From the sequence record ON286972: a stretch of DNA of 64,000 nucleotides; one strand, 5' to 3'. Shown piece after piece: positions 37,665-58,310 of this stretch (positions are counted from its first letter, which is position 1; every line of letters begins with the position of its first letter). The translations under genes and the position numbers were made by a program. The notes beneath the pieces were generated by a model, which saw only the letters and a program-made list of their open reading frames with translations, made no database searches and was not told the DNA's origin. The DNA is from Escherichia phage A4.

Positions 37665-37693
37665 CATTTCATCTACTACTGGGGATTTTAATT

Positions 37694-38747: not shown

Positions 38748-38768
38748 TAGTCTGATGGACACGAGTAA

Positions 38769-38993
38769 ATGAAATACATGCTGGTGGCATTAATGTTTGT
38801 GAGCACTATAGTACAGGCCAGAATCAAGTACTTTGTGAAGTGTACAAACGTTAGCGGTGGCTACACAGAGACATATCAGGGTAAGTCGGTTAAGATGGCA
38901 ATACACAATGATAGAGGAACAGTGATTTTCCTTGTGAATGATATAATCATTTTGTACAAACCAGATGTACCATGTGAAGTAAAAAGATATTAA
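38769..38993 (+). CDS. secreted small protein (signal peptide)
   Basis: N-terminal MKYMLVALMFVSTIVQA. Confidence 0.55.
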   Translation: MKYMLVALMFVSTIVQARIKYFVKCTNVSGGYTETYQGKSVKMAIHNDRGTVIFLVNDIIILYKPDVPCEVKRY

Positions 38994-38999
38994 ACTACG

Positions 39000-39030
39000 G
39001 GGTTGACATAAGTCAGCCCTTTTGTATAAT
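39000..39030 (+). terminator. terminator-promoter stem-loop cassette
   Basis: GGGTTGAC-ATAA-GTCAGCCC TTTTG TATAAT. Confidence 0.6.
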
Positions 39031-39038
39031 GGTGACTT

Positions 39039-39617: not shown

Positions 39618-39628
39618 CAGGAAAAAAT

Positions 39629-40060
39629 ATGTGGGTTAACGTTAATAGTACTGAACTTAATGAAATTGATATCTTTGCATTTGTTAATCTGGAAACTGAT
39701 ACCTTTGTTCGTGGACGTTTGTTCATGAGTTCTGCCTGTGTTCGCAGTATTGCAGTTATGGATGAACTCGGTCAGGTAATTGAGTGCCTACCATTACCTG
39801 CATGGGCATATAGCAGTACTGAAGAAGATGTAATGCAAAAGATCTTTGAAGGGATCAATAAGCTACCAGGTGCAGATGTGAAGAATAAGATATTCAACAT
39901 TGAGAATAAGAACTACAGTGCAGATGTATTGCGTCCTTTAGTGGATTCAGTACTACAAGCTGCATTAGCTAAACCTAAGTGCATTATTTTAAAGTACATT
40001 CCAGAACTTTCCCTAACTAAAGAGGATATGAAAGGATTTATATTCTCATCGGAGTTGTGA
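39629..40060 (+). CDS. hypothetical protein
   Basis: ATG ORF. Confidence 0.55.
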   Translation: MWVNVNSTELNEIDIFAFVNLETDTFVRGRLFMSSACVRSIAVMDELGQVIECLPLPAWAYSSTEEDVMQKIFEGINKLPGADVKNKIFNIENKNYSADVLRPLVDSVLQAALAKPKCIILKYIPELSLTKEDMKGFIFSSEL

Positions 40061-40284
40061 TGAAAAGGTATAAAATTGAATACCTACTTAAAGTAAGAGA
40101 GAAAAGTATTAGTAGTGAGAAATACACCAGTGAGATATTCGTCAGAGATGAGTATTACATTGGTGAAAATGAAGTTGAAGTACTGTTACAATGCATAGAA
40201 AATGAATTTCAAGATATGACACGTTATATGTCATTTGAGATATCGTGTGCAAAAGTTACATTCTTGAACAATACTTCATATTAA
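40057..40284 (+). CDS. hypothetical protein
   Basis: ATGA overlap. Confidence 0.5.
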   Translation: MMKRYKIEYLLKVREKSISSEKYTSEIFVRDEYYIGENEVEVLLQCIENEFQDMTRYMSFEISCAKVTFLNNTSY

Positions 40285-41923: not shown

Positions 41924-41955
41924 GGTTGACTTCGGTCAGCCTTTTTTGCTATAAT
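41924..41955 (+). terminator. terminator-promoter stem-loop cassette
   Basis: GGTTGAC-TTCG-GTCAGCC TTTTTTG CTATAAT. Confidence 0.65.
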
Positions 41956-42272: not shown

Positions 42273-42533
42273 ATGCAAAACCCTGAATTGAAAATGTTTA
42301 CACAAATCCGTCTTGCTCGTGTTGAACATGACACTAACTATGTACTGAACGATGGTCCTCCACAACGCGTTGAAGTTGGTTATATTGACGTTGATAATTC
42401 ACAATCTCTTCTGATTACCATTGGTTCTAACTCTTACAGTGTTGCTACACTGGAGAGTGTATTGTCCCTGGCACAATCCGCAAGGATTGCCCGTAACGCT
42501 CTTATGAACTGTGATGAACCTGATAATGAATGA
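42273..42533 (+). CDS. hypothetical protein
   Basis: ATG ORF with TGGAGA SD. Confidence 0.55.
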   Translation: MQNPELKMFTQIRLARVEHDTNYVLNDGPPQRVEVGYIDVDNSQSLLITIGSNSYSVATLESVLSLAQSARIARNALMNCDEPDNE

Positions 42534-42537
42534 TTAT

Positions 42538-42864
42538 ATGTATGAATTAAACCTGGTATCGTTTATCGTATCAGGACTAGGATGGATGTACTATATGCTT
42601 GGGTATATTTTATTATTCTTCCGATACAATACATTCTACAAACGCTATTGGGATGATGCACCAATTCACTTCTTCGCATTTGTATTCTTAACTATGGCAG
42701 TGGGTGAAGTACTGCTAACTGGTATCCAAAGTACTGGTGGAATGATGTGCACACTAACAACATTCTTTGTTGTTTTTGGGACTGTAGTTTGGTTTTTCGC
42801 GTGGGGACTCTTCTCTTTGATTATGAAACTTGAGAAACTCCGAGACAAATTACCAGAGCGTTGA
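42538..42864 (+). CDS. multi-pass membrane protein
   Basis: track ORF 42511..42864; several in-frame starts (GTG 42511, ATG 42514/42526/42538); start uncertain. Confidence 0.4.
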   Translation: MYELNLVSFIVSGLGWMYYMLGYILLFFRYNTFYKRYWDDAPIHFFAFVFLTMAVGEVLLTGIQSTGGMMCTLTTFFVVFGTVVWFFAWGLFSLIMKLEKLRDKLPER

Positions 42865-44388: not shown

Positions 44389-44422
44389 GGATTGACTTCA
44401 GTCAGCCCTTTTTTCTATAATC
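44389..44422 (+). terminator. terminator-promoter stem-loop cassette
   Basis: GGATTGAC-TTCA-GTCAGCCC TTTTTT CTATAATCATTTCATC. Confidence 0.6.
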
Positions 44423-44449
44423 ATTTCATCGAAACGAGAGGATGAATAC

Positions 44450-44887
44450 ATGACACGCATTAACTTAGTACATGTTAAAGAACTTGCTGACCAACATCTG
44501 ATGGCTGAATATCGTGAACTTCCACGTGTGTTTGGTGCTGTACAAAAACATGTTCAAGCACGTAAGCGTGTACGTGATTTCAAAATTAACAGTACTTATC
44601 TGTTAGGTTCAGGTCATGTAACATTCTTCTACGACAAGTTACTATACTTACAGAAGCGTCATATTGATATTGTTAACGAATGTTTGCGTCGTGGTATGAA
44701 GATTCAAAACACTGAAGTAAACGACATTAGCGGCTTCCCTGCTGAGTTTTGTAATGACTACGTACCATCGGAGTCCGAGATTAAAACATCACGCGAGCGT
44801 TTGATTGAGAAGCTTCAGATGAAGCCTAAGTGGTATAAGTTTACTGATGTTGAGCTACCTATATATTATGTTGATATGATACAATGA
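44450..44887 (+). CDS. denV: pyrimidine-dimer DNA glycosylase (T4 endonuclease V homologue)
   Basis: N-terminus [31 protein letters not shown] closely matches T4 endonuclease V as I recall it; SD GAGAGG. Confidence 0.9.
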
Positions 44888-45111
44888 ATGATGAAGAATT
44901 CAAAAAATATGCGATTGCGAAGCTTGATTCATACAAGTCACGCGAAACGTATAAATTTAATCCTGATAAAACAAAAGCATCTATAAGATGGATGATTAAT
45001 TCACCCAAATATACATTTGACGAAAAATATTCATGGATAGTGCAATGTAGTGATTATGAGGATTTGGTATATAATATTAAACTGTGTTGGTATGAATACA
45101 ACAATAAATGA
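44884..45111 (+). CDS. hypothetical protein
   Basis: ATGA overlap with denV stop. Confidence 0.5.
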
Positions 45112-45116
45112 TATAA

Positions 45117-45150
45117 GGGGTTGACTTCGGTCAGCCCTTTTTGCTATAAT
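45117..45150 (+). terminator. terminator-promoter stem-loop cassette
   Basis: GGGGTTGAC-TTCG-GTCAGCCC TTTTTG CTATAATCATTTCATC. Confidence 0.65.
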
Positions 45151-45176
45151 CATTTCATCAAATTAAGAGGTGATAC

Positions 45177-45416
45177 ATGAAACTATCTTTTATACGTTTA
45201 GCAGAATTCTTCGGTACTGATATAATTACTTTACAACAAATTGCAGACAATACTTCATTAAGTACACAAGAAGTACTTGACTTAGATGTGATAGAGTGTG
45301 ATAATACTTCTATCGATTATAAAGAAGGTCTTGTCGAAAAAGATAAGATTCAGGCTAAGATTAATGGTGCTGGACGGGTTCAGTACTGGAAAGGAGTTTT
45401 AAGTCATGCCAGCTAA
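45177..45416 (+). CDS. hypothetical protein
   Basis: ATG ORF with AGAGG SD. Confidence 0.55.
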   Translation: MKLSFIRLAEFFGTDIITLQQIADNTSLSTQEVLDLDVIECDNTSIDYKEGLVEKDKIQAKINGAGRVQYWKGVLSHAS

Positions 45417-47103
45417 ATTAACCCCTAAACAAGCAAAAGAAAAATTCAACAAAAAAGTATTAGAACATAACGTTCCAATTGAAGCTGATTATAGTAAGTA
45501 TGAAAATGCCAAATTAAAAAACATCCAAGTAGTTTGCAATGATGTATTAAAACACAAATCAGGCATATCACAAATATATCTTATGGATCACGCAAACCTC
45601 ACACACCCATCCAAAAAATTTGGTTGTCCTGAATGTGAAGACTGGTATAATGGTCATGCTAAAAGTTTAGATATTTTAATTGTTAGGGAAAGAATTAATT
45701 CTTGGATTAGTACTTATGGCGGGATTATTGATACGGTTAGTGGTGAAGTTGAAGTTTATAAAAATAATTCATCCAAAATACCATATATTTGTAAAAATGG
45801 AACTAAAAAAACGCTTACTATTTCTTCACTTGGCGATGAAATCGGTTGTAATTGTTCTAAATGTAAAGCTGAATTAATATCAGAAATCGAAGATAACAAT
45901 GAATATACATCCATGACTACTGTTGATGATTGTGTTACAATTTCCCATTTTAAATTTGGGGATGATGTTGCATTCTCGTGGATTTCACCATTGGAAATGA
46001 AAAAACATGGTTACTGTCTTGCCGAAAAAATGAAAGAAAAAGCATTGTCGGTTGGTAAAAATATTATTGGATATGCAATATCATCTCTTAGTGAATGGAA
46101 AAATGAAAAAACTCCTGTAATAACCGAACACGAAGGAGTATTATATCGTATTTCCAAAGCATCATATTTGATCAATAATAATATAGTACATAGACCACAT
46201 TATACAAAAAATAATTTTTTATATTATTTTTACAAATGTTCACCTAACAATCAACTTATTACACCAATCCTAATACCTGATGATATTGGTACAAAAAAGA
46301 AAATTAAAGTATGTTATAAATCATGTGGGTGTGAATATGATATATCTGTGGACGTTATAATGAACAGAAATTTAAAAACTTGTGGAAACTGTAAAAATAT
46401 AGATACTAATAAATTTATAGAACAGTGCTTGGAGTTCACTTCAAGTGGAGATTATATCTATGATAGAGTAAACTATATAAATCAAAGTACACCTGTAACT
46501 ATAGTTCATAAAATTTACGGCGAATTCAAAAGTACACCACAAAATCACTTAATACATTTAAAAAACGGTTTGAAATATGATACAGCTAACTTTAAAATAA
46601 AAAATTTAACTCAATTTAAAATTAAAGCAAATGAAGTTCATAATAACTTATATAATTATGATAAAGTTGATTATGTAAATTCTTCAACGAAAGTATTAAT
46701 AACTCATCCAGTATATGGAGACTTTTGGCAAACTCCAGCAAGTCACCTTGGTGGGTGTGGTCATCCACTTGCGGCTGGTCATTCTCAGCAATATGCATAT
46801 ATTCATAATATTTTGGATGGTGTTTTATCTGTAGCATTGAAATATGGGATTGAAAAGCAGAAAGGTAAGAGGGTGATGCAGCAAAATAAAAAATCCATGT
46901 TTCAAGTTCAATCTCTGTATACTTATTTTTTTCCATCTGTATACGAATGTAAGCAAGCTGAAAAAGAATGTAAGAAACTATTTGGTAAAGGTGTTTTAAC
47001 TAAACAAGAAATGCCAGACGGGTATACTGAAACAACTACACCAAACAACATAGATAAAATTATTGCCATCTATGAAAAATGGGGTGGGGTGAAACAAAAC
47101 TAA
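45406..47103 (+). CDS. Cys-rich protein with tandem internal repeats (candidate zinc-binding/DNA-binding protein)
   Basis: 565-aa ORF; multiple C-x2-C pairs (CPECEDW, CNCSKCKAE, CGCEYD, CGNCKN); repeated Y-D-x-V-x-Y-x-N-x-S-T-x-V-x-I-x-H-x-x-Y-G-x-F module. Confidence 0.6.
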   Translation: MPAKLTPKQAKEKFNKKVLEHNVPIEADYSKYENAKLKNIQVVCNDVLKHKSGISQIYLMDHANLTHPSKKFGCPECEDWYNGHAKSLDILIVRERINSWISTYGGIIDTVSGEVEVYKNNSSKIPYICKNGTKKTLTISSLGDEIGCNCSKCKAELISEIEDNNEYTSMTTVDDCVTISHFKFGDDVAFSWISPLEMKKHGYCLAEKMKEKALSVGKNIIGYAISSLSEWKNEKTPVITEHEGVLYRISKASYLINNNIVHRPHYTKNNFLYYFYKCSPNNQLITPILIPDDIGTKKKIKVCYKSCGCEYDISVDVIMNRNLKTCGNCKNIDTNKFIEQCLEFTSSGDYIYDRVNYINQSTPVTIVHKIYGEFKSTPQNHLIHLKNGLKYDTANFKIKNLTQFKIKANEVHNNLYNYDKVDYVNSSTKVLITHPVYGDFWQTPASHLGGCGHPLAAGHSQQYAYIHNILDGVLSVALKYGIEKQKGKRVMQQNKKSMFQVQSLYTYFFPSVYECKQAEKECKKLFGKGVLTKQEMPDGYTETTTPNNIDKIIAIYEKWGGVKQN

Positions 47104-47109
47104 ACAAAA

Positions 47110-47143
47110 GGGTTGACTTCGGTCAGCCCTTTTTGCTATAATT
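47110..47143 (+). terminator. terminator-promoter stem-loop cassette
   Basis: GGGTTGAC-TTCG-GTCAGCCC TTTTTG CTATAATTATTTCATC. Confidence 0.65.
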
Positions 47144-47170
47144 ATTTCATCAACTGATGAGGACAACGAA

Positions 47171-47941
47171 ATGACCAGAGAAGCACGCAGCATTCAAATT
47201 CAGAAAAACTTCAACTCCATGATGGTTGCTCTTGAGTGTTTGCTCGATGATAGCAGTACTGTAAAAAGTATGGTTGTCAGCGGTGCTCCTGGTGTTGGTA
47301 AGACTTACACCCTCTCTAAACGCCTCCAGAAAGCACATGACGCGGCAGAATGGAACGTAGCTACCATCAGTGGTAAAATGACCACTCTGGCTCTGTACGA
47401 AGTTCTGTACAAGAATCGTCATAGCACCAACGTGTTAGTACTGGATGATATGGACAGCATCTTTGATTCAGAAGACGGTATGAACCTGCTCAAAGCAGTA
47501 CTGGATAGTGGCAAGCGTACTGTTTCTTATATGACTAGCTCGAAGTATCTGAGCAGCAACGGTATCCCTAACAGCTTTGATTTTAATGGTCGCATCGTAT
47601 TCATTACTAACAAAGATTTAGCACTGAATGCTAAAGCTAAAACTAAAATGTCTGCTCACTATGCTGCTCTTATGTCTCGCTCTGTATACGTTGACTTACA
47701 GATCCAGACCAAAAGCGATATCATGATTCACATTGAGAACGTGATGAACCAGACCAACATTCTGGAATCTAAGGGTATTAACAGTAATGGTAGTAAAGCA
47801 ATCCTGAACTGGATGTTGAAGCACGAAGATTCACTTCGTTCACCTTCACTGCGTATGCCACTGTTGATTTCGGCAGTATATAACAACAACCCATACGATT
47901 GGGAAGAGCAATGTGAAAACTTGTTCCTGGAGAAAAATTAA
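47171..47941 (+). CDS. P-loop NTPase (AAA-like ATPase)
   Basis: Walker A GAPGVGKT, Walker B-like VLVLDDMD; ATG with GAGGA SD. Confidence 0.7.
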   Translation: MTREARSIQIQKNFNSMMVALECLLDDSSTVKSMVVSGAPGVGKTYTLSKRLQKAHDAAEWNVATISGKMTTLALYEVLYKNRHSTNVLVLDDMDSIFDSEDGMNLLKAVLDSGKRTVSYMTSSKYLSSNGIPNSFDFNGRIVFITNKDLALNAKAKTKMSAHYAALMSRSVYVDLQIQTKSDIMIHIENVMNQTNILESKGINSNGSKAILNWMLKHEDSLRSPSLRMPLLISAVYNNNPYDWEEQCENLFLEKN

Positions 47942-47968
47942 TTGATAACACATAACATCGATAAGGTC

Positions 47969-48160
47969 ATGTTATTATATGCATGTATTAACATGATTGT
48001 CGTTTTAGTTAAAGTTTATGGATGGTTTCATACACTTGATATTGATACTGAAAAGGAGTATAATCCTCAAGAAGCATCTCTTGGATTAAAAATTATTGTT
48101 TTAATTAGCGTAGTATCCGTATACATGGTATTACTATCAACTATGATTAAGTTCACTTAA
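47969..48160 (+). CDS. small membrane protein
   Basis: track ORF 47942..48160 (TTG) trimmed to ATG after AAGG; two TM helices. Confidence 0.45.
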   Translation: MLLYACINMIVVLVKVYGWFHTLDIDTEKEYNPQEASLGLKIIVLISVVSVYMVLLSTMIKFT

Positions 48161-48170
48161 CGAGGAACAT

Positions 48171-48503
48171 ATGATTAATTTATTTTCAACTGAGGTTATG
48201 ATTAAAATTACATTAGTATACATATGTCTATTCGTATACTACCACGCTCTCATCGGAATCTTGTGGTTCTTTAAGAAAGGTCGTATTCTTGAGAAATTGT
48301 ACCCAGACTATATGATATTGTATACAATTGTCCAGGGTGTAGGAATAGTACTGGGAATTCTAGTGCACTTGATATATTTGTTTGAACCACACCTTCCGTG
48401 TATTACACAATACATTGTATTCGGAACTACTATTATGTGGCTTGTAATGATGGGTGTGTATGGTCTGTATTTGTACAGGAAACGTATAGTGGGAGATTTC
48501 TAA
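48171..48503 (+). CDS. small multi-pass membrane protein, tandem array member 1
   Basis: ATG with GAGGAA SD; 3-4 hydrophobic helices. Confidence 0.55.
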   Translation: MINLFSTEVMIKITLVYICLFVYYHALIGILWFFKKGRILEKLYPDYMILYTIVQGVGIVLGILVHLIYLFEPHLPCITQYIVFGTTIMWLVMMGVYGLYLYRKRIVGDF

Positions 48504-48856
48504 TGCAAGAGGTTATTAAATGGTTGACAACCAGTGATATTGCTAGTACACTGAACTATGTACTCATTATCTTATATCCGTTTTTGATGGTTCTAAACTT
48601 CATTGGATGGTATTTCAAACGTCCAATTTACTACAAGATTAATAATTCAGAGTACTATGAAAGTGTTGTAATTGCAACCTCAATCACGTATACTATGGGT
48701 GCGGTTCTTACAGTCATAGGATTAGGTCAAGGTGATAATCTTAACTTTATGCTATGTACCTTTGTTATGATATGTATTCCAACACTAATTGTAATTCTAT
48801 CGAATATTGTGTGGAAAAAAATGTTATTTGCACGCAACAAAATACCGGAGGCATAA
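48503..48856 (+). CDS. small multi-pass membrane protein, tandem array member 2
   Basis: track ORF 48398..48856 trimmed to ATG overlapping upstream stop (TAATG). Confidence 0.5.
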   Translation: MQEVIKWLTTSDIASTLNYVLIILYPFLMVLNFIGWYFKRPIYYKINNSEYYESVVIATSITYTMGAVLTVIGLGQGDNLNFMLCTFVMICIPTLIVILSNIVWKKMLFARNKIPEA

Positions 48857-49191
48857 TGGAGTACTTTATCAGTTTACTACCGTGGTACTTGAAAGTAAGT
48901 ACAATTTACTACATCATTTCCGCTGGGTTTTATTTCTTGATGTGGTTCTTTAAACGTCCAATCAGTGAATTCATCGATAATCATATGATGAGTTTTAAAC
49001 TTCACTGCTGGTTTTGGTCATCGTCAGTGATGCCATTCATCCATTACGGAATTATCAGTACTGGTAAACGTTCTAATGGTGAAATCATTTCCTTGGGTTT
49101 TTACTGGATATCGACTATTGTTTACATTGGTGTGCTTTTGTATCCATTTGTAGTTAAACTACGAAACTCTATCCCAGATCACAGGAAATAA
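48856..49191 (+). CDS. small multi-pass membrane protein, tandem array member 3
   Basis: track ORF 48754..49191 trimmed to ATG overlapping upstream stop; FKRPI motif shared with member 2. Confidence 0.5.
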   Translation: MEYFISLLPWYLKVSTIYYIISAGFYFLMWFFKRPISEFIDNHMMSFKLHCWFWSSSVMPFIHYGIISTGKRSNGEIISLGFYWISTIVYIGVLLYPFVVKLRNSIPDHRK

Positions 49192-49192
49192 T

Positions 49193-49513
49193 ATGAAGAT
49201 TCAATTTATTCTTTTCACAGTAAGTGCATTCTACTTTTGGGTTTGCTGGATTGGTTTTCTCTTTGCACTAAAACCATTTGACTTCTATGCAAAGCAGTGT
49301 AAAAATGCTGCTGTTGGTAATGTAGCTTTTACATTGCTTAGTACATTATGGGTAGTACTGATTATATTCAATCCACCTGATAATGATTTGGAAATGTCAT
49401 TGTGTACATTATTTGCAGGACTGTGTGTATTCGCAGCATTCTGTAGTTATATTGGAAAGTTATGTTCTTTGGTATCAAATTTCCATCGTAAACAAAAAGA
49501 TAAGAGGGTATAA
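49193..49513 (+). CDS. small multi-pass membrane protein, tandem array member 4
   Basis: ATG ORF, hydrophobic. Confidence 0.5.
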   Translation: MKIQFILFTVSAFYFWVCWIGFLFALKPFDFYAKQCKNAAVGNVAFTLLSTLWVVLIIFNPPDNDLEMSLCTLFAGLCVFAAFCSYIGKLCSLVSNFHRKQKDKRV

Positions 49514-49896
49514 TGTACACAACAATATATGTTATTCTTAATATCCTAAGTGCATGTCTAACAATAGGTGCATTAATATACATTGGAAAGTTCTTTTGTG
49601 TAAAGTTCGTCGAAGATGTGTATGAGGATATTGAATCCGACTACGAATCTAAGTGCTTCTTCCATGTTGGATATATCATTTGCTTAGTAACCACTATCTT
49701 CACATGGATTGTATACGTATTCGGGATTGGAATCACTTCAATTGGTGAACCAGTACTGTGCATTATTGGATTAGTGTTTTCTTCAATATTCGGGTTATTG
49801 TTCATGATTATTCTTATGTATAATTTAATCTGTACTGCTATTGTTCCTTTCTTTTATGAAATTCACAATAACATTAAACGTAAGAAACGAGGTTAA
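49513..49896 (+). CDS. small multi-pass membrane protein, tandem array member 5
   Basis: TAATG overlap, hydrophobic. Confidence 0.5.
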   Translation: MYTTIYVILNILSACLTIGALIYIGKFFCVKFVEDVYEDIESDYESKCFFHVGYIICLVTTIFTWIVYVFGIGITSIGEPVLCIIGLVFSSIFGLLFMIILMYNLICTAIVPFFYEIHNNIKRKKRG

Positions 49897-49898
49897 TT

Positions 49899-50252
49899 AT
49901 GTTTTCTCCTGCTGGACAAGTTATATTCATGGTATGTACACTGGTATTCTTTATGTTGTCTGTACTATTTGTGATGAAATTCTTTCACATGAAACCATTC
50001 AGTACTTGGTATGATAATATTGTGTACTATATTGGTAATGCTATAACACTCTTTTCAGTTGCATACTATTTCGGTTATTTTGCAATGCTATTTGGGTTAT
50101 TACTTGAAGCTCGTGCATTGCTTGTAGCTGGTATGGTGGCAGATTTAATGTGTCTAACACTAGCTTGTATTGGATTTACTGTATGTATGTCGTTAACCAT
50201 TTTTGACAAATTATGTAAACTACACAAACGTTTAGGTGAGAGGATGAAATAA
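49899..50252 (+). CDS. small multi-pass membrane protein, tandem array member 6
   Basis: ATG ORF, hydrophobic. Confidence 0.5.
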   Translation: MFSPAGQVIFMVCTLVFFMLSVLFVMKFFHMKPFSTWYDNIVYYIGNAITLFSVAYYFGYFAMLFGLLLEARALLVAGMVADLMCLTLACIGFTVCMSLTIFDKLCKLHKRLGERMK

Positions 50253-50635
50253 TGACTTACCGTGATTACTTTTGTATTTTTGAAATTGCAGTATTCGCTT
50301 TAGGTTCAGTCTGGTTACTTCTATACTACTTCTGTATTAATCCAGTATTCAATTGGGTTCGTCGTGCTGAACAAAGTAGTGCTGGACAAATAGCAGTTGT
50401 TATGGGTATGACATATTATATGTTCGCCGTGGCTTCTGTTGTTATTGAAGTAATATTTGGTGGCATGAATGGTGATGATGGGGCAACGTTCTATGGATTC
50501 GTAACATTCTTTAGTGTGCTGATTCCGTGTGGTGCTCTTATTATTACTGCGTTCTATTGGCTATATCGTGGTGTTAAGAAGCTGGAATCAATTCACGTAG
50601 ATATGCGTTCAAAACGAATGGGGATTGACAAATAA
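50252..50635 (+). CDS. small multi-pass membrane protein, tandem array member 7
   Basis: TAATG overlap, hydrophobic. Confidence 0.5.
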   Translation: MTYRDYFCIFEIAVFALGSVWLLLYYFCINPVFNWVRRAEQSSAGQIAVVMGMTYYMFAVASVVIEVIFGGMNGDDGATFYGFVTFFSVLIPCGALIITAFYWLYRGVKKLESIHVDMRSKRMGIDK

Positions 50636-51186
50636 TGAAACGAAGTTCTAATGTCATTCGCGAACGATTTCGTAAAGTAAAAACTATTAAGTACGGGACT
50701 ATTGCTCTTGTACTTAGTAGTACTTTTATTATGACAGGATGTGAACGCTCTGAAGATATTTCTGTATATCAGAATGTGGACCAATGTAAAAGAAGTGGTA
50801 GCAATCCGGTACAGTGTGAAGATGATTATAAAAAAGCACTAACTGAATCGGAAAAGGTAGCACCAAAATATAGTTCACAAAGTGATTGCTCTAGTGATTT
50901 TGGTAATCAGTGTCAACAGCATAGCTCTGGATTCTTTTGGATGCCAATTATGAGTGGATTCCATAGTAGTGGTAATGGGTTTGCTAGTCAACCACTATAC
51001 AACTCTAAAGGGAACTACTATGATGCTGGTGGTAACTCCTACGGTAGCAGTACTGCAAAAGGTACAACACGTACTGTATCAAGTTCCGCATTAGCTCCAA
51101 AACCTCCTACAACGACCACAATCACCCGCAATGGGTTTGGGTCTTCAGTAGCCAGAAGTGCCGCTCACACGAGTTCTGGTGGATAA
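50635..51186 (+). CDS. putative lipoprotein with Gly/Ser/Thr-rich C-terminus
   Basis: signal peptide ...ALVLSSTFIMTGC with lipobox-like MTGC; ATGA overlap. Confidence 0.55.
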   Translation: MKRSSNVIRERFRKVKTIKYGTIALVLSSTFIMTGCERSEDISVYQNVDQCKRSGSNPVQCEDDYKKALTESEKVAPKYSSQSDCSSDFGNQCQQHSSGFFWMPIMSGFHSSGNGFASQPLYNSKGNYYDAGGNSYGSSTAKGTTRTVSSSALAPKPPTTTTITRNGFGSSVARSAAHTSSGG

Positions 51187-51189
51187 TAA

Positions 51190-51216
51190 AAAAGCCCACA
51201 TTAAGTGGGCTTTTTG
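51190..51216. terminator. bidirectional rho-independent terminator between convergent gene blocks
   Basis: hairpin AGCCCAC-ATTA-GTGGGCT flanked by AAAAA and TTTTT. Confidence 0.65.
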
Positions 51217-53241
51217 TTATTTGTGTTTTATGTGTAAAGTGTCTAATATTGTATTGAACAATGATTTAGCAGAAATCATGATTACTTGATCAAAATCTTT
51301 AGTATAAGAAATATTAGCAGTACTGGAAGAATCTTTCACCTCATCCGGTAATGCATCAAACTCTTCTTTTTCCATAATCTTTTCAAGTTCTTCACGAGAA
51401 ATGGCTTTTACGTTTTCAATAGTCCTTAGTTGTATATTATAATCTTTATAATACGAAACTAAGTTCGTTGCGTATGAACCATCTTTAGATGCTGTTCCAG
51501 TAAAATCATAACATCCTGTATCAGTACTAACCCAATCGATTTTCCCTGAACTACCACTATATACACCTTTGTTGAACTTAATGTTAACAACATCACCAAT
51601 AGTTTTCAATATACCACCTTTACATTCATTAAATGCGTTTAATTGATAACTTGTAGTCATATAGAATTTCGGTTCTAATGTAACAGTATCACCTACAGTT
51701 GCTTTCATATCAGAAACACTTAAGAACAATTCATTAAATCCTTTTGAATAAGTCTTGGTAATTGTTGTTCCATCCCTGTTAGTTACTGTGTATTCTAAGT
51801 CCAATTCACAAATACTATTCAATGATAAGTAAGGGATATCAAATTTATCAGTACTAGCATCATAAGGACATCTTGAGGATGGTAGTATACCAGTAGGGTT
51901 TGGTACGTATTGAACTTTTGTTAACTCATACCCGCTTGCATTCGCTGGTGTAACTGTAATAGACGGTGTAGATATTCCTTTCATTCCACAGAAGTATATG
52001 TTATCTGGAAAATCATTTATTACGAAGTCAGTGACAGGAATATCATAAGTATCTTTATCAGTCCAATTAAGAACAACATTAGAACTGGTTGGATCAACAA
52101 TATGTTCACTAGAACCACAGAAATATACTGATTTGGTATTAGTAATCATTAGTAATGTTTTGGATGATGAGTTCAATTCAAGAACATCTTTCACTTCAAG
52201 ACCAGATGGTAATGTCAATGGTAACTTCGTAAATGATGTTAAATCTTGTTCATCTTTAACACCACTAGTCCCCGCCGGAAACTTACCTGAACCATAGAAA
52301 ACACCTTTATTCGTCATGAAATACATGAACGGGGTTGATGTTCCTTTGTCAAATAGTTGAATGTCATCACATGTTAAACCATCAGGTAAATCCACTTTAG
52401 ATGGAGTTCTATAAACACCAGGCTTAATACCACCTTCACCATTACTTACATCACCTAGTACATATAAATCTTTACCTAGTTTCAAGAACATTGATTTATT
52501 TTTAGCACACAAGAATGTATCATATGATTTATCATCAATTGGTAGCTTGGTATATTCGGTGTATGTAGGCATTGAATCATCAATCCACGAACTATCACCA
52601 CTAATGTAAATGTGATTGTTTCTGTCAATATAATATGAATACACATCAGTACTGTTCATATATAAAGCATTTAGTGCATTTGTTTTCACTAAGTGATTGA
52701 ACTTAAGAACTTGTTTTCCATCGTACTTATGGGAGTTGACACCAATATCACCATTTAGGCTACTACCAATTGAATATATATGACCACGTGGTAATAGAAC
52801 TTGAACACCACTTTTGGTTAAATTATATTTGGAGTGCAAGAGATCGTTATATACAACTCTAACTTTCTTAAAGATATCAGTACATTCAATCCACGATTTA
52901 GATGGTGTACCATCCATTCCTATTATTGCCGGATCACCATAATAATAAGCTTTATTTTCATATGATATTTTAAAAGATGATTTACCATCTTTTGTATTAG
53001 CACTGAAGTACACATCTTTACTATCTTTAATTGGATAAGTACTATTCTCTACAAAAGTATTATATGAGATATCGTTGTTAGCACTATTAAGAACAAAAGA
53101 AGTAGATGTACTATTGGACTTATAGACTGCTACGGAAGATGTATCACTGAAATCAATTTTAGTGAACGTATCTTTGTATGTTTCGTTTAATAATCCTACA
53201 TAAAAAACATCAGTGCCATCCATCAGTAACGAATATAGCAT
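51217..53241 (-). CDS. large beta-propeller-like protein with RCC1-type motifs (array member 10, no MLPFVRM leader)
   Basis: 674-aa ORF; motifs such as KDLYVLGDVSNGEGG; start may be the in-frame ATG at 53223. Confidence 0.6.
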   Translation of the reverse strand: MLYSLLMDGTDVFYVGLLNETYKDTFTKIDFSDTSSVAVYKSNSTSTSFVLNSANNDISYNTFVENSTYPIKDSKDVYFSANTKDGKSSFKISYENKAYYYGDPAIIGMDGTPSKSWIECTDIFKKVRVVYNDLLHSKYNLTKSGVQVLLPRGHIYSIGSSLNGDIGVNSHKYDGKQVLKFNHLVKTNALNALYMNSTDVYSYYIDRNNHIYISGDSSWIDDSMPTYTEYTKLPIDDKSYDTFLCAKNKSMFLKLGKDLYVLGDVSNGEGGIKPGVYRTPSKVDLPDGLTCDDIQLFDKGTSTPFMYFMTNKGVFYGSGKFPAGTSGVKDEQDLTSFTKLPLTLPSGLEVKDVLELNSSSKTLLMITNTKSVYFCGSSEHIVDPTSSNVVLNWTDKDTYDIPVTDFVINDFPDNIYFCGMKGISTPSITVTPANASGYELTKVQYVPNPTGILPSSRCPYDASTDKFDIPYLSLNSICELDLEYTVTNRDGTTITKTYSKGFNELFLSVSDMKATVGDTVTLEPKFYMTTSYQLNAFNECKGGILKTIGDVVNIKFNKGVYSGSSGKIDWVSTDTGCYDFTGTASKDGSYATNLVSYYKDYNIQLRTIENVKAISREELEKIMEKEEFDALPDEVKDSSSTANISYTKDFDQVIMISAKSLFNTILDTLHIKHK

Positions 53242-54154
53242 TTCTATTATTACATAAAGAAGTAATATTTTTTACTACTTTATTTGAATTATAGTTTGGT
53301 AACTTCTTTAATCCACGAACAAAATTATCACAAATAATACCAGTACCATAGAAGTTATAATCTTTATCACAGTATATAAATGCTGTATCATATGGTGAAG
53401 TACTTAAATTCTTATAGAATGGGAATGGAGTGAATGTGAATTGTAGAACCTTACGCAATTCCCCTACTGTCTCTGTTGGGAATTGTCTGTTTTTATTATT
53501 ACCAATAAAAACAACTCTATCTGTTAGGAATGTGTACATAATTCCATATGGTTTTACGTACAAATCATTATATCCCAATGATAATTTAGTTGGTGATGTT
53601 AGTGGTCCTGAGTTTATTTTGGTTTGATTAATTGAAAACTCATTAGAATTATAACCAGCCCCATATGTATTACCATTAGTACTTAAATAATATACAGTAG
53701 CTTCCCCTGCTCCAAGAAAAGTCTTTACATCAGTTGCTAACGTTTTTTGGAAAGTTGGATAAAATTTATTATATGTTCCCGTTCCCATCATCAGTTCACC
53801 ATTGCGGTTATGACCACGAGCATATAGAATACCTTTGTCTGTATCTAAGAAGAACATACCATTATATGTTTTGTAAATCTTACCTTTTGTAATATCGAAA
53901 TTGGAAAAATCATCACTAATATCAATGAATATTGTCTCAAGATTATCTTCAAGGGAGTTTAGAGATTTACCACAATACCATACTGAGTTATCTTTTTTAA
54001 CAGCAACACAACCACACGGACTGGCATCAAAATATGTTACATCGGAAAGAACCAGAGATAAGTTCTTTGTACTGCAATAGTTATCCATTGCATATAAATC
54101 GGAATCTTTAAGTATATATACGGAATTCCCAACCGCTTTAATCGAATTTATCAT
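53210..54154 (-). CDS. RCC1-like beta-propeller protein (array member 9, no MLPFVRM leader)
   Basis: track ORF starts TTG at 54244; trimmed to ATG (MINSIK) after GAGGA SD; motif GILYARGHNRNGELMMG. Confidence 0.55.
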   Translation of the reverse strand: MINSIKAVGNSVYILKDSDLYAMDNYCSTKNLSLVLSDVTYFDASPCGCVAVKKDNSVWYCGKSLNSLEDNLETIFIDISDDFSNFDITKGKIYKTYNGMFFLDTDKGILYARGHNRNGELMMGTGTYNKFYPTFQKTLATDVKTFLGAGEATVYYLSTNGNTYGAGYNSNEFSINQTKINSGPLTSPTKLSLGYNDLYVKPYGIMYTFLTDRVVFIGNNKNRQFPTETVGELRKVLQFTFTPFPFYKNLSTSPYDTAFIYCDKDYNFYGTGIICDNFVRGLKKLPNYNSNKVVKNITSLCNNRNAIFVTDGWH

Positions 54155-54373
54155 GTTTATATCCTCATAAATTGATACCAATTCTAATGTATTTACCCAC
54201 TTAAAGTACAAAAAATGATCAATTAAATGGGGAATCTTTAACAAATGAATTCATGATGTACTTGATGAATTGCCCATACCAACGGATTCCTCAGTCCCAG
54301 CATACCACATGGTATTATCGAACTTTTTATCATTGTAGTATCATAACCACACCAAACATCATCAACATTAGTA

Positions 54374-55726
54374 TTACAACAATTGTATTTCTGTGAGTGT
54401 TTGATATGTTGTACCGTTGTACACACCTCTCCAATATACCCTACCTTCAGTACTAACCACTAATAATCCATATGTTGTAAACCCAAGAGTACCACCAACA
54501 TACATAGCATCTTTAATTCGAATACCAATGTCTTCATATGTAAATGAAGCGACTGCTCCCGCTTGCCACGAAGGACTAGCGTAGTAATCACTATAAACAC
54601 CATGTGCTTTATATATTGATGTTGTTCCTGGTTCAAAAATTACAGTTCCACAGTAGTTCATTCGTATTTTAGTACTGGATGAAGTCGGTACATTTATACC
54701 TATGCCATCTTTTATCCCTGTAGTTAGGACGTTAAAACCACCCGCCACACGGTTGACGTCATTCTCACCGATTAAAAACATACCAACGTTGTAGCCCATA
54801 TAATATACACTGCTACTGCCATTCCAGAAAGAAAAACCACCACCATTACCACAGCGATATAGTTGTGAATTTGAGCAGTACATCATACCTTCGTTTGTCG
54901 CATCAAATTCATCTGCTGTTCCTATTGTAGCTACAGTAGTCCACGTTTTAATCACTTGGTTTGTACTAGCTGGTGTTTGTATACCATATCGTATATTATA
55001 TCCCTTACCAACGATTGTACCATCTTCTAATTTAGCATAAAGTACAGGTCTATTACCAACAAAATACATATTATTGTGTGACATGTCTATTGTGCATCTT
55101 AATGAAACTACTTTTTGTGTCAATTGATTATCTTTAGTAAAAGAAGTAAAGTAGTAATCCGATGTTGAGTTGTTTATTAAACCTTGTATTGACAATCCCA
55201 TATACCAGATTTCACCATTGCTGTTTAATGCTGCCAAAATACAACTATATTTTGAAGTGTATGCTGGTGATGTTGTTGAAGTTGCTGGTCCTTTATCATA
55301 TCCACCACAGAATACCATCTCCACAACTTCACCTACGTTCGAAAAATAAGAAGATACATTGATAAAACCATTTGTTATAAAAGGTGCTGTATTCATACTT
55401 GAATGTGTGAATATCCCATTTGCATATACACCACAAAAATGATATGAACCATCATTATCTTGGACTATTATTCCATTTGATAGTAACCAAAAATTGTTTA
55501 CATTTTTTCTTACTAATTCAACTCCTGCACCATTGGTTGGTGTTATACCAAAAGAAACATATTTTGTTTGACCAATACCATATAAATTTCCATTAGTTGC
55601 TAGTATTGCACCAAACCAGTTCCCACCACCATTCCTATCATGACCCATACCAATGGAGTCAAATTTCTTCACAGTAGGGACTTCAACTTTATTCCCATAC
55701 TCTAGCATTCTAACAAAAGGTAACAT
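54374..55726 (-). CDS. RCC1-like beta-propeller protein with MLPFVRMLEYGN leader (array member 8)
   Basis: SD AGGAGG then ATG MLPFVRMLEYGNKVEVP; motif GNLYGIGQTKYVSFG. Confidence 0.7.
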   Translation of the reverse strand: MLPFVRMLEYGNKVEVPTVKKFDSIGMGHDRNGGGNWFGAILATNGNLYGIGQTKYVSFGITPTNGAGVELVRKNVNNFWLLSNGIIVQDNDGSYHFCGVYANGIFTHSSMNTAPFITNGFINVSSYFSNVGEVVEMVFCGGYDKGPATSTTSPAYTSKYSCILAALNSNGEIWYMGLSIQGLINNSTSDYYFTSFTKDNQLTQKVVSLRCTIDMSHNNMYFVGNRPVLYAKLEDGTIVGKGYNIRYGIQTPASTNQVIKTWTTVATIGTADEFDATNEGMMYCSNSQLYRCGNGGGFSFWNGSSSVYYMGYNVGMFLIGENDVNRVAGGFNVLTTGIKDGIGINVPTSSSTKIRMNYCGTVIFEPGTTSIYKAHGVYSDYYASPSWQAGAVASFTYEDIGIRIKDAMYVGGTLGFTTYGLLVVSTEGRVYWRGVYNGTTYQTLTEIQLL

Positions 55727-55801
55727 ATATCCTCCTTTATTCATTATATTATATTTAATCAAAAAAGAAAAGCCAGTACAGAGTACTGGCATTTAAAATA
55801 A
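55727..55801 (-). repeat. conserved intergenic cassette (terminator hairpin GCCAGTAC...GTACTGGC + T-run, AT-rich TATAAT-containing promoter-like segment, AGGAGG SD)
   Basis: minus-strand reading TTTAAATGCCAGTACTCTGTACTGGCTTTTCTTTTTTGATTAAATATAATATAATGAATAAAGGAGGATAT-ATG; recurs 6 times. Confidence 0.65.
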
Positions 55802-56977
55802 TCAAAATGTAGGAAGTTTGAATTCTCTCATAACAGATGAACTGCTTGCAGATACATTATCTGGTGATTTCCCTGCGTAGTATAATTTATTATCAATGAA
55901 CATATACAATGTTGCATCATTTCCTGCTACAAGTGATTCACTTTTCTTAAATTTAACACCACTAGGTAAAATTGCTTCAACAAATGAACCTGATTCTCTT
56001 GTAGTATTATTTGCCAATTGACCATTGTTATTATAACCAGTACTATAAATTTTACCTGAACTATAATATACGAGTCCACGAGTACTAGTGTTTTCTATTC
56101 GAATGAATTCACTATCATCTGGGACTGTAGTTGATAGAACTGGGTTTAACTTATAAGCAGATGATACATTATTATTACCCAATTGACCATAACCTTGAAA
56201 GCCTAGTGTATACATAGGACATGATTCTGGTGTGCCTTTTGTTATAATACCAATATAATTCACACTACAAAAAATGTCTATTGCTTCTGTAATAGGTGTA
56301 CCCTTATATTGAACCCAAGGGAATACATACGATTGTTGCTTACCATTTCCCAAAGTACCGGAAGTTGTTGTCCCAGTACGCCACATTGTATCATCAAGTT
56401 TAATAATCCAGTTAGCTGTCGTTATCGATGAACAGAATTTTTTAACATTATCCACTAAAAATGTAAATTGATTATAATATGATGCAGTGTTTATACCAAA
56501 CTTAGCACCAGTATTATCACCTAACAAATATAAACTATTATCTGTACCTAAAATCAAAGCATAATCATAACCCACGTATATATCTTTAATTCTTGAAATT
56601 CCAAATTGTGTAAAATAGCTTGTACATTCTGTGAATGTTGTTATATTATTGGTTGTATTATTACCTAGCCATTTATCTAAACCACTATAAAAGAATCTAT
56701 CATCATTTGTGCGTATTAGACAAAAAGCGTTCATTGTACTGCACCAAAAATCTTTAACATTGCTATATATTTTTGTCCATTCAGTTACTGCATTAGTATG
56801 ACCTAAACCAAAAATTCCACCATTCTGAAGACCAATAGCCCATATTGAACCATTTTTATCAAGCATCATTGTACATGTATGTGAATAACCACCCGATGGT
56901 GTAACTAATTTAACAAAATTGGGAATATATGGTAAAACTTTATTTCCATAATCCAACATTCTAACAAAAGGTAACAT
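55802..56977 (-). CDS. RCC1-like beta-propeller protein with MLPFVRMLDYGN leader (array member 7)
   Basis: SD AGGAGG + ATG; motifs GSIWAIGLQNGGIFGLG, GKIYSTGYNNNGQLANNT. Confidence 0.7.
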   Translation of the reverse strand: MLPFVRMLDYGNKVLPYIPNFVKLVTPSGGYSHTCTMMLDKNGSIWAIGLQNGGIFGLGHTNAVTEWTKIYSNVKDFWCSTMNAFCLIRTNDDRFFYSGLDKWLGNNTTNNITTFTECTSYFTQFGISRIKDIYVGYDYALILGTDNSLYLLGDNTGAKFGINTASYYNQFTFLVDNVKKFCSSITTANWIIKLDDTMWRTGTTTSGTLGNGKQQSYVFPWVQYKGTPITEAIDIFCSVNYIGIITKGTPESCPMYTLGFQGYGQLGNNNVSSAYKLNPVLSTTVPDDSEFIRIENTSTRGLVYYSSGKIYSTGYNNNGQLANNTTRESGSFVEAILPSGVKFKKSESLVAGNDATLYMFIDNKLYYAGKSPDNVSASSSSVMREFKLPTF

Positions 56978-57048
56978 AATTCCTCCTTTATTCATTATAC
57001 TATATTTAATCAAAAAAGAAATGCCAGCATCAAGTACTGGCATTATTG
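56978..57048 (-). repeat. conserved intergenic terminator/promoter/SD cassette
   Basis: hairpin ATGCCAG...CTGGCAT + T-run + ATATAGTATAATGAATAAAGGAGG. Confidence 0.6.
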
Positions 57049-58239
57049 TTATAGTTGTCTTGGTGTATCAAGTACATATCTATTTGTACTAGGACCACCA
57101 TCATCATACGTTCCGGTTGAATATATATTTTTCATATCAGCAGTTAGAAAAGTACGATACGAACCGCGATATATTTTTATTTTATCATACATAGAATATG
57201 ATATTTCTGCTGGCATTGGACATATAGTAAATCTACCAATAGTAACATTAGAACCAACACCCAACGAACCAGCATAACTACTCGCATTTAAACCAGTTGC
57301 ATATACACCAGTACTCGTAACTAGTATACTAGATTGTGTTGGGTATCCTGTATGAATTGAATACAAAGTTCCAGTTGGTAATGTCGTACTATTGCTCCCT
57401 AATACAGCAAGTGCCGAACTGGTTGTGGTATTGTTACCCCATGCACCATTACTCGCTAAACCACCAACTAGAAACTGACGTGCACCAGTACTTGGATTCT
57501 CAACCAAAGCACTGACTGCACCACTTGAGCATCCAGTGTATTGTAACGTTTTTGTGTATGTTGTACTTGGTTTATATAAAGTATATTCATTAAATGGTGT
57601 CCATGTGGTACTGGTACTTATACCTGACGTACCACCACCAATATATAAATTATTTTGTGTATCAAAAAACATTACACAGTTATTTGTTGACTGTATTTGT
57701 GCAATATCAACATTAGGCGTGACAGCTTTTACAAATGATCCATCTGTTATTTGTTGAGTACTACCAGTACCATCAGCGAATTGTCTAGCCCCACTCCAAC
57801 CAGTACTCCATATTGTATTATTATCCATTAATACCGTAAACCACGTAGTACCTCCATACATCTGTTTAATTGAAGTACTTGAACTTTGCGTGTACAAATT
57901 TTCAATATATTGGTTATAACTTAAAAACGTAGTAGTACTAGTTGGTAAACCAATATGATCACCATATCCACAATAAAAATAATTTGAGTCATTATCTTGT
58001 ACTAACAAAGTTCCTTGTGACACCCAGAAATCTTTAACATTTTCTCTAATTAAGGTCCATGACTTTACTGCATTACTATTTCCTATACCAAACTTCCCAA
58101 AACTATTATTTCCACGTGCGTATAGTTGACCATCCGTATAAAGAACGACAACATCTAAATCAGTTGGTGTTATTTTCTTAATTTGAATAGGGACTGGTGT
58201 TATATTCCCATAATCAAACATTCTAACAAAAGGTAACAT
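57049..58239 (-). CDS. RCC1-like beta-propeller protein with MLPFVRMFDYGN leader (array member 6)
   Basis: SD GGAGGG + ATG; motif GQLYARGNNSFGKFGIG. Confidence 0.7.
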   Translation of the reverse strand: MLPFVRMFDYGNITPVPIQIKKITPTDLDVVVLYTDGQLYARGNNSFGKFGIGNSNAVKSWTLIRENVKDFWVSQGTLLVQDNDSNYFYCGYGDHIGLPTSTTTFLSYNQYIENLYTQSSSTSIKQMYGGTTWFTVLMDNNTIWSTGWSGARQFADGTGSTQQITDGSFVKAVTPNVDIAQIQSTNNCVMFFDTQNNLYIGGGTSGISTSTTWTPFNEYTLYKPSTTYTKTLQYTGCSSGAVSALVENPSTGARQFLVGGLASNGAWGNNTTTSSALAVLGSNSTTLPTGTLYSIHTGYPTQSSILVTSTGVYATGLNASSYAGSLGVGSNVTIGRFTICPMPAEISYSMYDKIKIYRGSYRTFLTADMKNIYSTGTYDDGGPSTNRYVLDTPRQL

Positions 58240-58310
58240 ATTTCCCTCCTTTATTCATTATACTATATTTAATCAAAAAAGAAAAGCCAGTATCAAGTAC
58301 TGGCCTATAT
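58240..58310 (-). repeat. conserved intergenic terminator/promoter/SD cassette
   Basis: same cassette family (GCCAGTACTTGATACTGGC hairpin). Confidence 0.6.

Follow-up and report, generated by a model that had tools for sequence, protein, structure and literature searches.

The question raised by positions 47171 to 51186 of a 64,000-nucleotide stretch of DNA from Escherichia phage A4 (sequence record ON286972; the whole stretch is referred to here as the window) is what a phage gains from a gene for an AAA+ ATPase that is followed by a row of small multi-pass membrane proteins and, at its end, by a lipoprotein. The ten proteins encoded in this region are exact matches to the deposited A4 proteins USL83893-USL83902 (locus tags A4_228 to A4_235), and the phage itself, with a genome of 355,528 bp, belongs to the Asteriusvirus-like jumbo coliphages as a divergent representative. 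The block, which comprises the ATPase, seven membrane-protein paralogs and a copy of YgiB, very probably forms one transcription unit, and conservation of this unit extends over the RaK2-like jumbo phages (Asteriusvirus, Alcyoneusvirus, Mimasvirus and Eneladusvirus). With regard to its role we tentatively prefer, at somewhat less than even probability, an early battery that conditions or guards the envelope or excludes superinfecting phages. The array genes are already present in GenBank, only as 'hypothetical' or 'membrane protein', and we found neither a paper treating the block as a unit nor a functional study of the arrays.

The membrane-protein array behind the ATPase

All genes of the operon lie on the plus strand, in the order AAA+ ATPase, a doubtful gene m1, seven solid genes m2 to m8 (106-127 amino acids) and a lipoprotein of the DUF1190 family. 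A preliminary description of this DNA had named a 256-residue Walker A/B ATPase, eight small membrane proteins and a lipoprotein with a Gly/Ser/Thr-rich tail. The ATPase (47171-47941) and the lipoprotein, an open reading frame of 183 codons at 50635-51186, are both present, whereas the eight membrane proteins are reduced to seven that stand firm, each with three hydrophobic windows of 19 residues in the hydropathy analysis, and an eighth, m1, that is weak. Of the overlapping stop and start codons described, the TAATG type occurs at five junctions (m2/m3, m3/m4, m5/m6, m7/m8 and m8/lipoprotein) and the ATGA type at none; two other junctions of the array are gaps of 1-2 nucleotides, and a Shine-Dalgarno-like purine run precedes the gene at each junction. 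The explanation that the row is one fused reading frame broken up by sequencing error is rejected because the gene boundaries persist in many independent assemblies: they are gap-free in the close relative L016 and are also kept in 121Q, slurp01, RaK2 and the metagenomic contig L014.

Each of the seven solid members is assigned three helices. The first, m2 (A4_228, 48171-48503, 110 amino acids, predicted to reside in the inner membrane), is the ortholog of 121Q gp224/225 and of RaK2 'c' and matches phrog_19454 with an E value of 8e-21. It is followed by m3 (A4_229, 48503-48856, 117 amino acids; 121Q gp226), which carries a YFKRP loop and the C-terminal sequence RNKIPEA, and by m4 (A4_230, 48856-49191, 111 amino acids; phrog_27396, E 2e-45), the start of which had originally been placed at 48853 and which is the best-conserved member with 67% identity to 121Q gp227. 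The ortholog of m5 (A4_231, 49193-49513, 106 amino acids) appears in the 121Q record as two pieces, gp228 and gp229. Next comes m6 (49513-49896, 127 amino acids; 121Q gp230), with an acidic first loop and the C-terminal sequence HNNIKRKKRG; m7 (A4_233, 49899-50252, 117 amino acids; 121Q gp231) is the member most divergent from 121Q with 25% identity, and m8 (50252-50635, 127 amino acids; 121Q gp232) adds a cytoplasmic helical extension to its three helices.

That these proteins are paralogs had been guessed at the outset, and several of them had been said to share FKRPI-type loop motifs. The motifs are located after the first helix (YFKRPIY in m3, FFKRPIS in m4, FFKKGRI in m2), and the guess itself is statistically supported by profile-profile comparison. 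When hhalign was run on the profiles of twelve ortholog groups, four of which come from Mimasvirus and Eneladusvirus (66 pairs and 66 reversed-sequence controls), 24 of the 66 pairs exceeded the best reversed control, and the groups form one connected network with mostly full-length, in-register alignments; m3 and m4 are joined with a probability of 96% (E 2e-9), m6 and m8 with one of 75%. As judged by sequence comparison, m2 to m8 are true paralogs. BLAST finds one-to-one orthologs of m2 to m8 in the same order in 121Q/slurp01 and, with the exception of m7, also in RaK2. An exhaustive search of 1.84 billion protein representatives with the family profile returned only 21 proteins, all of 104-128 amino acids and with shared motifs, and a word-indexed search of 5.8 billion proteins gave nine family matches. 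Neither Pfam nor NCBIfam nor PADLOC contains a family matched by m2 to m8; within PHROG each ortholog group has its own small entry of unknown function, and m7 matched none.

Three hydrophobic windows are apparent in 50 of the 57 family members, and for the GAP32 homologs the depositors had noted three transmembrane segments by TMHMM and Phobius. Summed over the 57 members, Lys and Arg are few in the N-terminal stub (27) and loop 2 (38) and numerous in loop 1 (155) and the C-terminal tail (265), a distribution from which the positive-inside rule predicts an N-out/C-in topology with three helices. Two motifs characterize the family, W-F/Y-F-K-R-P in the basic first cytoplasmic loop and h-H/R-N-x3-K-R-G in a basic cytoplasmic C-terminal helix. 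An AlphaFold2 model of m8 (predicted local distance difference test, pLDDT, 71.5) consists of three long helices and a short amphipathic helix (residues 3-26, 30-41, 43-69 and 80-122), the last of which extends into the cytoplasm. Every match of this model in a fold search against the PDB had an E value above 1, which is uninformative, as expected for a three-helix protein.

The doubtful gene m1 (47969-48160, 63 amino acids, or 72 when read from a TTG at 47942) encodes two hydrophobic segments, matches the family hidden Markov model with an E value of 0.056 only and has no homolog in 121Q, slurp01 or RaK2. In L016 a deletion of 59 nucleotides leaves no such reading frame; it is retained in four other A4-like assemblies. 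Because of this weakness we count the array as seven solid genes and one doubtful one, perhaps a paralog that is decaying or has been truncated. A promoter-like site lies within it (48036-48064). In its 72-residue form (47942-48160) m1 has been deposited as USL83894.1, 'endonuclease V [Escherichia phage A4]'; as the real endonuclease V is encoded at 44450-44887, this name looks like an annotation slip.

Protein identity to 121Q amounts to 93-99% in the 5-kb block upstream and in the ATPase and to about 26-67% in the array, and the drop falls exactly at the stop codon of the ATPase gene (47941/47942); it is seen against slurp01 as well, starting from about 99%. The DNA flanking the operon matches that of 121Q, PBECO4 and slurp01 at about 88-90%, across only 40-50% of its length. 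Apart from m2 and m4, the A4 array is about equally far from the arrays of 121Q and RaK2; tblastn against 50,697 phage records found no array above about 44% identity to that of A4, and A4-type alleles occur in several E. coli-associated assemblies and metagenomes. In comparison with L016, m2 to m8 and the lipoprotein gene are all gap-free, with ratios of nonsynonymous to synonymous substitution (dN/dS) of 0.07-0.50 (m2 0.50, m3 0.14, m4 0.22, m5 0.29, m6 0.44, m7 0.14, m8 0.07, lipoprotein 0.08) at dS values of 0.12-0.30, while the value of 0.011 for the ATPase indicates very strong constraint. The array genes and the lipoprotein gene are therefore real and constrained, albeit less so than the ATPase. 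Region by region, conservation peaks in the first helix and the first cytoplasmic loop and reaches its minimum in helices two and three.

These figures bear directly on the view that the array is dispensable filler, that is an ORFan family of a hyperplastic region which persists by duplication and drift and is of marginal selective value. The array does lie in a mosaic region in which many neighbours are just 25-55% identical to their relatives, insertions and deletions bounded by the stem-loop elements treated below are adjacent, m1 decays in L016 and the 121Q record shows m5 in two pieces. On the other hand, seven genes remain intact and gap-free at the dN/dS values given, orthologs and their order are kept across genera in which the ATPases are just 45-70% identical, and the sequence motifs are conserved. 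Filler is at odds with these selection data, and we regard it as a highly improbable explanation.

Promoter, terminator and time of expression

The element that heads the operon (47106-47142, plus strand) is situated directly 5' of the ATPase gene, reads AAAAGGGTTGACTTCGGTCAGCCCTTTTTGCTATAAT and combines a terminator-type hairpin (GGGTTGAC-TTCG-GTCAGCCC plus a run of T) with a sigma-70-type promoter contained in it. The -35 box TTGACT (47113-47118) is part of the 5' arm of the hairpin and is followed, after an 18-nucleotide spacer with an extended TG, by the -10 box TATAAT (47137-47142), so that 11 of 12 positions agree with the consensus. In L016 the same operon is headed by an identical element. 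Five copies of this composite (TTGACT-18-TATAAT in a hairpin) are present on the plus strand of the window, at 37635-37664, 41926-41955, 44392-44421, 45121-45150 and 47113-47142, compared with an expectation of 0.07. Repeated stem-loops with a near-consensus sigma-70 promoter, placed between genes and accompanied by insertions and deletions of modules, are thus found in A4 as they are in the promoter-early stem-loop (PeSL) cassettes described for T4-type phages (PMC2839356, PMC4122927); in the A4 element the -35 box lies within the stem, the published PeSL layouts having been compared in outline only.

A clean case of insertion or deletion of a PeSL-bounded module adjoins the operon. The 2.7-kb segment between the copies at 44392 and 47113 is missing from L016, which has one PeSL with identical flanks (window 44392-47142 corresponds to L016 6960-7060). 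It encodes endonuclease V (44450-44887), two small open reading frames and a homing-endonuclease-like protein of 565 amino acids (45406-47103). Another PeSL-delimited unit, about 5.3 kb upstream, contains an orphan member of the three-helix family (42514-42864, plus strand, 116 amino acids, C-terminal KLRDKLPER; family hidden Markov model E 1.6e-9, 32.7 bits), which lies outside the coordinates given in the preliminary description. The orphan is 36% identical to 121Q gp207, and since gp207 adjoins the similar-sized gp208 and gp209, a second small array may exist in the relatives.

The operon is closed by a strong intrinsic terminator at 51189-51215 (AAAAAGCCCAC-ATTAA-GTGGGCTTTTT, 11 pairs flanked on each side by A/T runs), which also faces a convergent gene on the minus strand (51217-53241). 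Between 46900 and 51300 there is no motif of the T4 late type (TATAAATA or ATAAATA). RpoD-like promoters abound in the counterpart region of phage CBB, where the authors of the CBB genome paper suspect early, host-takeover genes (PMC5259590). Given the sigma-70-type promoter, the absence of late motifs and the promoter-rich CBB region, the operon would be expressed early and by the RNA polymerase of the host. Megablast with positions 47000-51400 also yields high-identity matches in 18 Vibrio, 6 Erwinia, 3 Aeromonas and other phage records; these cannot stem from the array itself, and a short common element such as a terminator or PeSL hairpin is the probable cause.

Class I holins of the lambda S105 type are proteins of about 100-130 amino acids with three transmembrane helices, an N-out/C-in topology and a basic, charged C-terminus. 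The A4 family resembles them in size (101-130 amino acids), number of helices, predicted topology and highly basic C-terminus, and this bears the possibility of a lysis-timing system in which the three-helix proteins act as class-I-type holins and antiholins and the lipoprotein as a spanin-like outer component. The word 'holin' is, moreover, absent from the CBB genome paper (PMC5259590). It is nevertheless an early envelope function that is favoured over holins, because the promoter is of the sigma-70 type, within a PeSL-like element, and no late-type motif is present, the endolysin of the group (CBB_187, 121Q gp532), which possesses its own N-terminal membrane anchor, is encoded far from the array (PMC5259590), and about six to twelve paralogs in a row are unlike any lysis cassette. 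The operon contains no endolysin gene and its proteins no dual-start motif, a search of Pfam and PHROG gave no sequence or profile match to class I holins, and a YgiB homolog of 183 amino acids is no short spanin and lacks an inner-membrane spanin partner. A separately annotated holin has been reported in fEgEco12 (PMC13070987). Altogether, a function in lysis timing appears very unlikely.

Conservation and separability of the three parts

The order ATPase, array and, usually, DUF1190 recurs in RaK2, GAP32, CBB, fHe-Yen9-03 and metagenomic contigs, and the synteny spans four phage genera. In RaK2 an ATPase of 70% identity is followed by eight three-helix genes and a DUF1190 gene whose product is 58% identical; the corresponding values are 82%, seven genes and 67% for the metagenomic contig L014, and 59%, twelve genes and no DUF1190 for the metagenomic contig L015. 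GAP32 (ATPase 46% identical) possesses six three-helix genes and one gene with a single transmembrane segment, CBB (46%) four and one that is split, and the Yersinia phage fHe-Yen9-03 (45%) five and a gene for 94 amino acids, all three with DUF1190. The copy number is thus about 6-12 per genome (CBB: four plus one split), with lineage-specific duplicates. Family, architecture and position after the ATPase are the same as in A4 in the arrays of 121Q (gp224-232), PBECO4/slurp01 (PSLUR01_00129-135), phAPEC6 (gp012c-017c), RaK2 (the eight genes), GAP32 (gp522-527), CBB (gp434-440) and fHe-Yen9-03 (g526-531). A terminal DUF1190 gene is common to A4, RaK2, GAP32, CBB, fHe-Yen9-03 and L014, whereas in the 121Q-type phages, which possess the array, it has been replaced by an unrelated gene for 219 amino acids. 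The products of phAPEC6 gp011c-gp018c, that is the array, the ATPase and the following 219-residue protein, are absent from the 62-protein virion proteome of this phage. In Mimasvirus and Eneladusvirus the arrays are interrupted by a conserved gene for a soluble protein of about 255 amino acids that has no BLAST relation to the ATPase (L005 3416-4180, which is GAP32_524; L008 3731-4501; L009 3404-4183), and a small acidic protein with one transmembrane segment is encoded before DUF1190. Convergent RCC1/Kelch-like virion genes come after the block in every phage or contig compared.

The ATPase (USL83893.1) exhibits the Walker A motif GAPGVGKT at residues 38-45 and the Walker B motif VLVLDD at 88-93 and is NrdC.10-like by profile and model: its residues 2-253 align with positions 77-326 of the 327 in phrog_1250 (E 1.1e-103). 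Several AAA models of Pfam match, the AAA family itself with 23.3 bits at a cut-off of 21.2. G38, G41, G43, K44, D92, D93, N147, R170 and R228 are invariant across 44 homologs, and N147, R170 and R228 presumably represent sensor-1, arginine finger and sensor-2. An AlphaFold2 model based on the 44 homologs (pLDDT 93.1) consists of an AAA+ core and a helical lid. Foldseek matched it to 225 PDB entries at E <= 1e-3, among them ORC/Cdc6, RuvB, Bcs1, RFC and NSF; with template modelling (TM) scores of about 0.5 these matches are generic for AAA+ proteins, and a specific subfamily is not assignable. A sequence search of the PDB gave nothing below E 0.1. Among viral models NrdC.10 of Aeromonas phage 25 matches with a TM score of 0.93, and unrelated phages including a Roseobacter siphovirus are also found; the family is broad, with 187 matches in a protein search that comprise more than 40 lineages anchored on the ATPase, dozens of arrays being visible in Logan and ENA contigs, and 121Q gp223 is 98.8% identical to the A4 protein. 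The latter resembles T4-type NrdC.10 in sequence and predicted fold but lacks its N-terminal extension of about 75 residues, as is seen from the start of the profile match at 77/327. For NrdC.10 itself, an AAA motif is all that one paper notes (PMC1524935). In PADLOC the ATPase drew only P-loop noise and the other operon proteins drew no match, and membership in a defence system was rejected; a scan of IMG/VR anchored on the ATPase returned solely 121Q and RaK2 themselves, and the gene neighbourhoods compared here stem from GenBank phage records and from contigs that encode homologs.

The unity of ATPase, array and lipoprotein that was implied from the beginning stands insofar as they form one transcription unit that is syntenic in the RaK2-like group, and falls insofar as every part also occurs alone. 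ATPase homologs encoded on L011 and L012 (42% and 33% identity) are surrounded by genes for soluble proteins only, and an obligate partnership with the array is rejected as a general rule. The same applies to DUF1190, which is found without multi-pass neighbours in Ea35-70 and SA002, while 121Q-type phages and L015 possess arrays without DUF1190. Since each of the three also occurs apart from the others, an obligate machine is not shown, and the ATPase gene at the head of the operon appears to be an early gene conserved in its own right, its product being no proven partner of the array.

It is at this point that a fixed hetero-oligomeric complex in the inner membrane has to be considered, in which the seven paralogs would be present in defined stoichiometry and resemble a channel or scaffold, the ATPase would dock on their basic cytoplasmic tails and the lipoprotein would be periplasmic, the whole being a trans-envelope machine for the early part of infection. 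Such a complex agrees with orthologs that correspond one to one and keep their order between Asteriusvirus and Alcyoneusvirus, with TAATG overlaps that are kept in relatives, with an ATPase immediately upstream of the array in every RaK2-like lineage examined and with conserved cytoplasmic motifs in loop 1 and the C-terminal tail, yet the number of copies varies between about 6 and 12 with lineage-specific duplications and losses, and Mimasvirus arrays are broken by an unrelated gene for 254 amino acids. Furthermore, not only the ATPase homologs of 33-42% identity but also T4-type NrdC.10 and the homolog from the Roseobacter siphovirus occur without an array, and DUF1190 is missing in the 121Q-type phages and L015. 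We consider the complex unlikely. That the seven paralogs are subunits of an early heteromeric inner-membrane assembly, powered or regulated by the ATPase via the tails and linked to the outer envelope by the YgiB-like protein, strikes us as improbable; if true, it would be an undescribed phage-specific trans-envelope machine and would provide the first function for the NrdC.10 and DUF1190 families.

The lipoprotein (A4_235) is matched by Pfam PF06693, that is DUF1190, with 112.2 bits (cut-off 22, E 4.1e-32) and by phrog_3739 with an E value of 6e-55. It is a predicted lipoprotein on the basis of a basic N-terminus (MKR..RFRK), a lipobox (IMTG/C) and a Glu at position +2, followed by the Gly/Ser/Thr-rich tail. 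Over its full length it is 49% identical to Salmonella YgiB, and the basic N-terminus, C36 of the lipobox, C51, C61, C85 and C93 as well as QPLY, DAGGN.YG and TR.GFG are invariant in an alignment of Salmonella YgiB and phage homologs, so that no conserved feature of YgiB is missing. With 154.1 bits against NCBIfam PRK11653 (cut-off 223), it is a member of the family and not a YgiB equivalog. DUF1190 genes were found by tblastn in 144 phage records, nearly all of them from jumbo phages of Enterobacterales. An Asp after the lipobox Cys is the classical signal for retention in the inner membrane. This residue is Asp in RaK2, GAP32, CBB, fHe-Yen9-03 and L014 (genes of the Asp type compared: L004 11054-11650; L005, L008 and L009, each 6001-6624; L014 9343-9909) and Glu in A4, L016 and host YgiB, so that the phage lipoprotein may go to different membranes depending on the lineage.

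YgiB, to which no function has been assigned, is predicted to be a lipoprotein of the outer membrane and is co-transcribed with tolC (PMC11762307), and its bacterial paralog YjfM, also of the DUF1190 family, is encoded in PspA-linked operons (yjfIJKLMC) beside the DUF350 membrane protein YjfL (bioRxiv 10.1101/2020.09.24.301986). The A4 operon could therefore be put forward as a host-borrowed module for envelope stress or homeostasis, like YjfL-YjfM or tolC-ygiBC, that serves membrane stabilisation and not exclusion. In favour of this, the lipoprotein is a genuine, full-length YgiB homolog, the DUF1190 protein of bacteria also adjoins a small multi-pass membrane protein, and the family recurs in Enterobacterales jumbo phages. 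However, the operon contains neither DUF350 nor an ATP-grasp partner (YgiC/YjfC) nor a PspA-like gene. The only approach to DUF350 among m2 to m8 was that of m8 (E 0.0036, 17.8 bits at a cut-off of 26), and this link was rejected because just one of eight m8 orthologs matched and the exhaustive profile search returned no bacterial proteins. With the failure of this link, what remains to carry the module is the homology to YgiB. Taking into account also that DUF1190 stands without a multi-pass neighbour in Ea35-70 and SA002 and that the array of the 121Q-type phages persists without DUF1190, we judge a stress module to be quite unlikely.

Beyond the operon, strong mosaicism is evident in the A4 genome, whose segments meet at abrupt, recombination-like boundaries; window positions 33598-40284, for example, are only 24-63% identical to slurp01. 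Convergent on the operon, the minus strand of 51217-64000 carries a long run of large paralogous open reading frames (298-674 amino acids) with RCC1/Kelch/WD40_RLD-like annotations in relatives. Some of them are virion proteins in phAPEC6 and CBB, their identity to relatives ranges from 23% to 93%, and they constitute a second expanding paralog family.

A possible role at the envelope

We return to the reading of the operon as an early battery for envelope conditioning, envelope guarding or superinfection exclusion. According to this proposal, host RNA polymerase would produce the operon early in infection, the three-helix proteins would enter the inner membrane and the lipoprotein would go to the periplasmic face of the envelope. 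Jointly they would condition the envelope, and guard it, for as long as a giant phage needs to complete its lengthy infection cycle, with every paralog acting on its own target. Candidate targets are the DNA entry of superinfecting phages and membrane-acting host defences or triggers of envelope stress, and the mode of action may be akin to that of T4 Imm/Sp, P22 SieA or T5 Llp. Evolution of the family would proceed by birth and death of genes combined with rapid divergence. We favour such a battery because of the promoter type, the non-virion status, the predicted location in the inner membrane, the changes in copy number, the fast divergence and the captured lipoprotein, and also because some records of relatives annotate genes for superinfection immunity and for a lytic-conversion lipoprotein within this region, in its upstream part.

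Several observations weigh against an exclusion battery. No homology ties members of the array to exclusion or defence in Pfam, PHROG, PADLOC or NCBIfam, and ordered one-to-one orthologs together with codon overlaps are no less compatible with a fixed multi-subunit complex than with a set of independent effectors. An arms-race signature in the periplasmic loops was rejected: substitutions are not concentrated there, so that no sign of an outward-facing arms race is seen, and dN/dS is below 1 everywhere. Finally, the early timing is read from the promoter consensus only.

Therapeutic use of the RaK2-like jumbo phages is being developed, with E. coli, Klebsiella, Cronobacter and plant pathogens as targets, and more than 80% of their genes have so far remained without a function. 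The operon is among the few multi-gene blocks conserved over four genera of this group, and it encodes envelope proteins including a captured host ygiB. Its function would give a role to a clade-wide family of about ten genes per genome, could account for the way therapeutic jumbo phages behave with respect to exclusion and host range and could offer a handle on the biology of YgiB/YjfM and NrdC.10. Should it turn out to be an ordinary exclusion battery, this would be useful and unsurprising.

As far as homology searches can tell, the block belongs to no characterised system, and it resembles known phage modules of small membrane proteins only in general design. The nearest of these in the proposed role, T4 Imm/Sp, P22 SieA and T5 Llp, are small early envelope proteins of virulent phages that are encoded in variable regions. 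They have no homology to the A4 proteins and are single genes, in contrast to the conserved, ordered array of paralogs in A4. What the A4 operon has in common with them is the design as small envelope proteins encoded in a variable region and, in the case of Llp, the lipoprotein component. With regard to early expression and an inner-membrane location, two traits of the Imm/Sie type, the promoter consensus and the predicted topology of the A4 proteins would be compatible.

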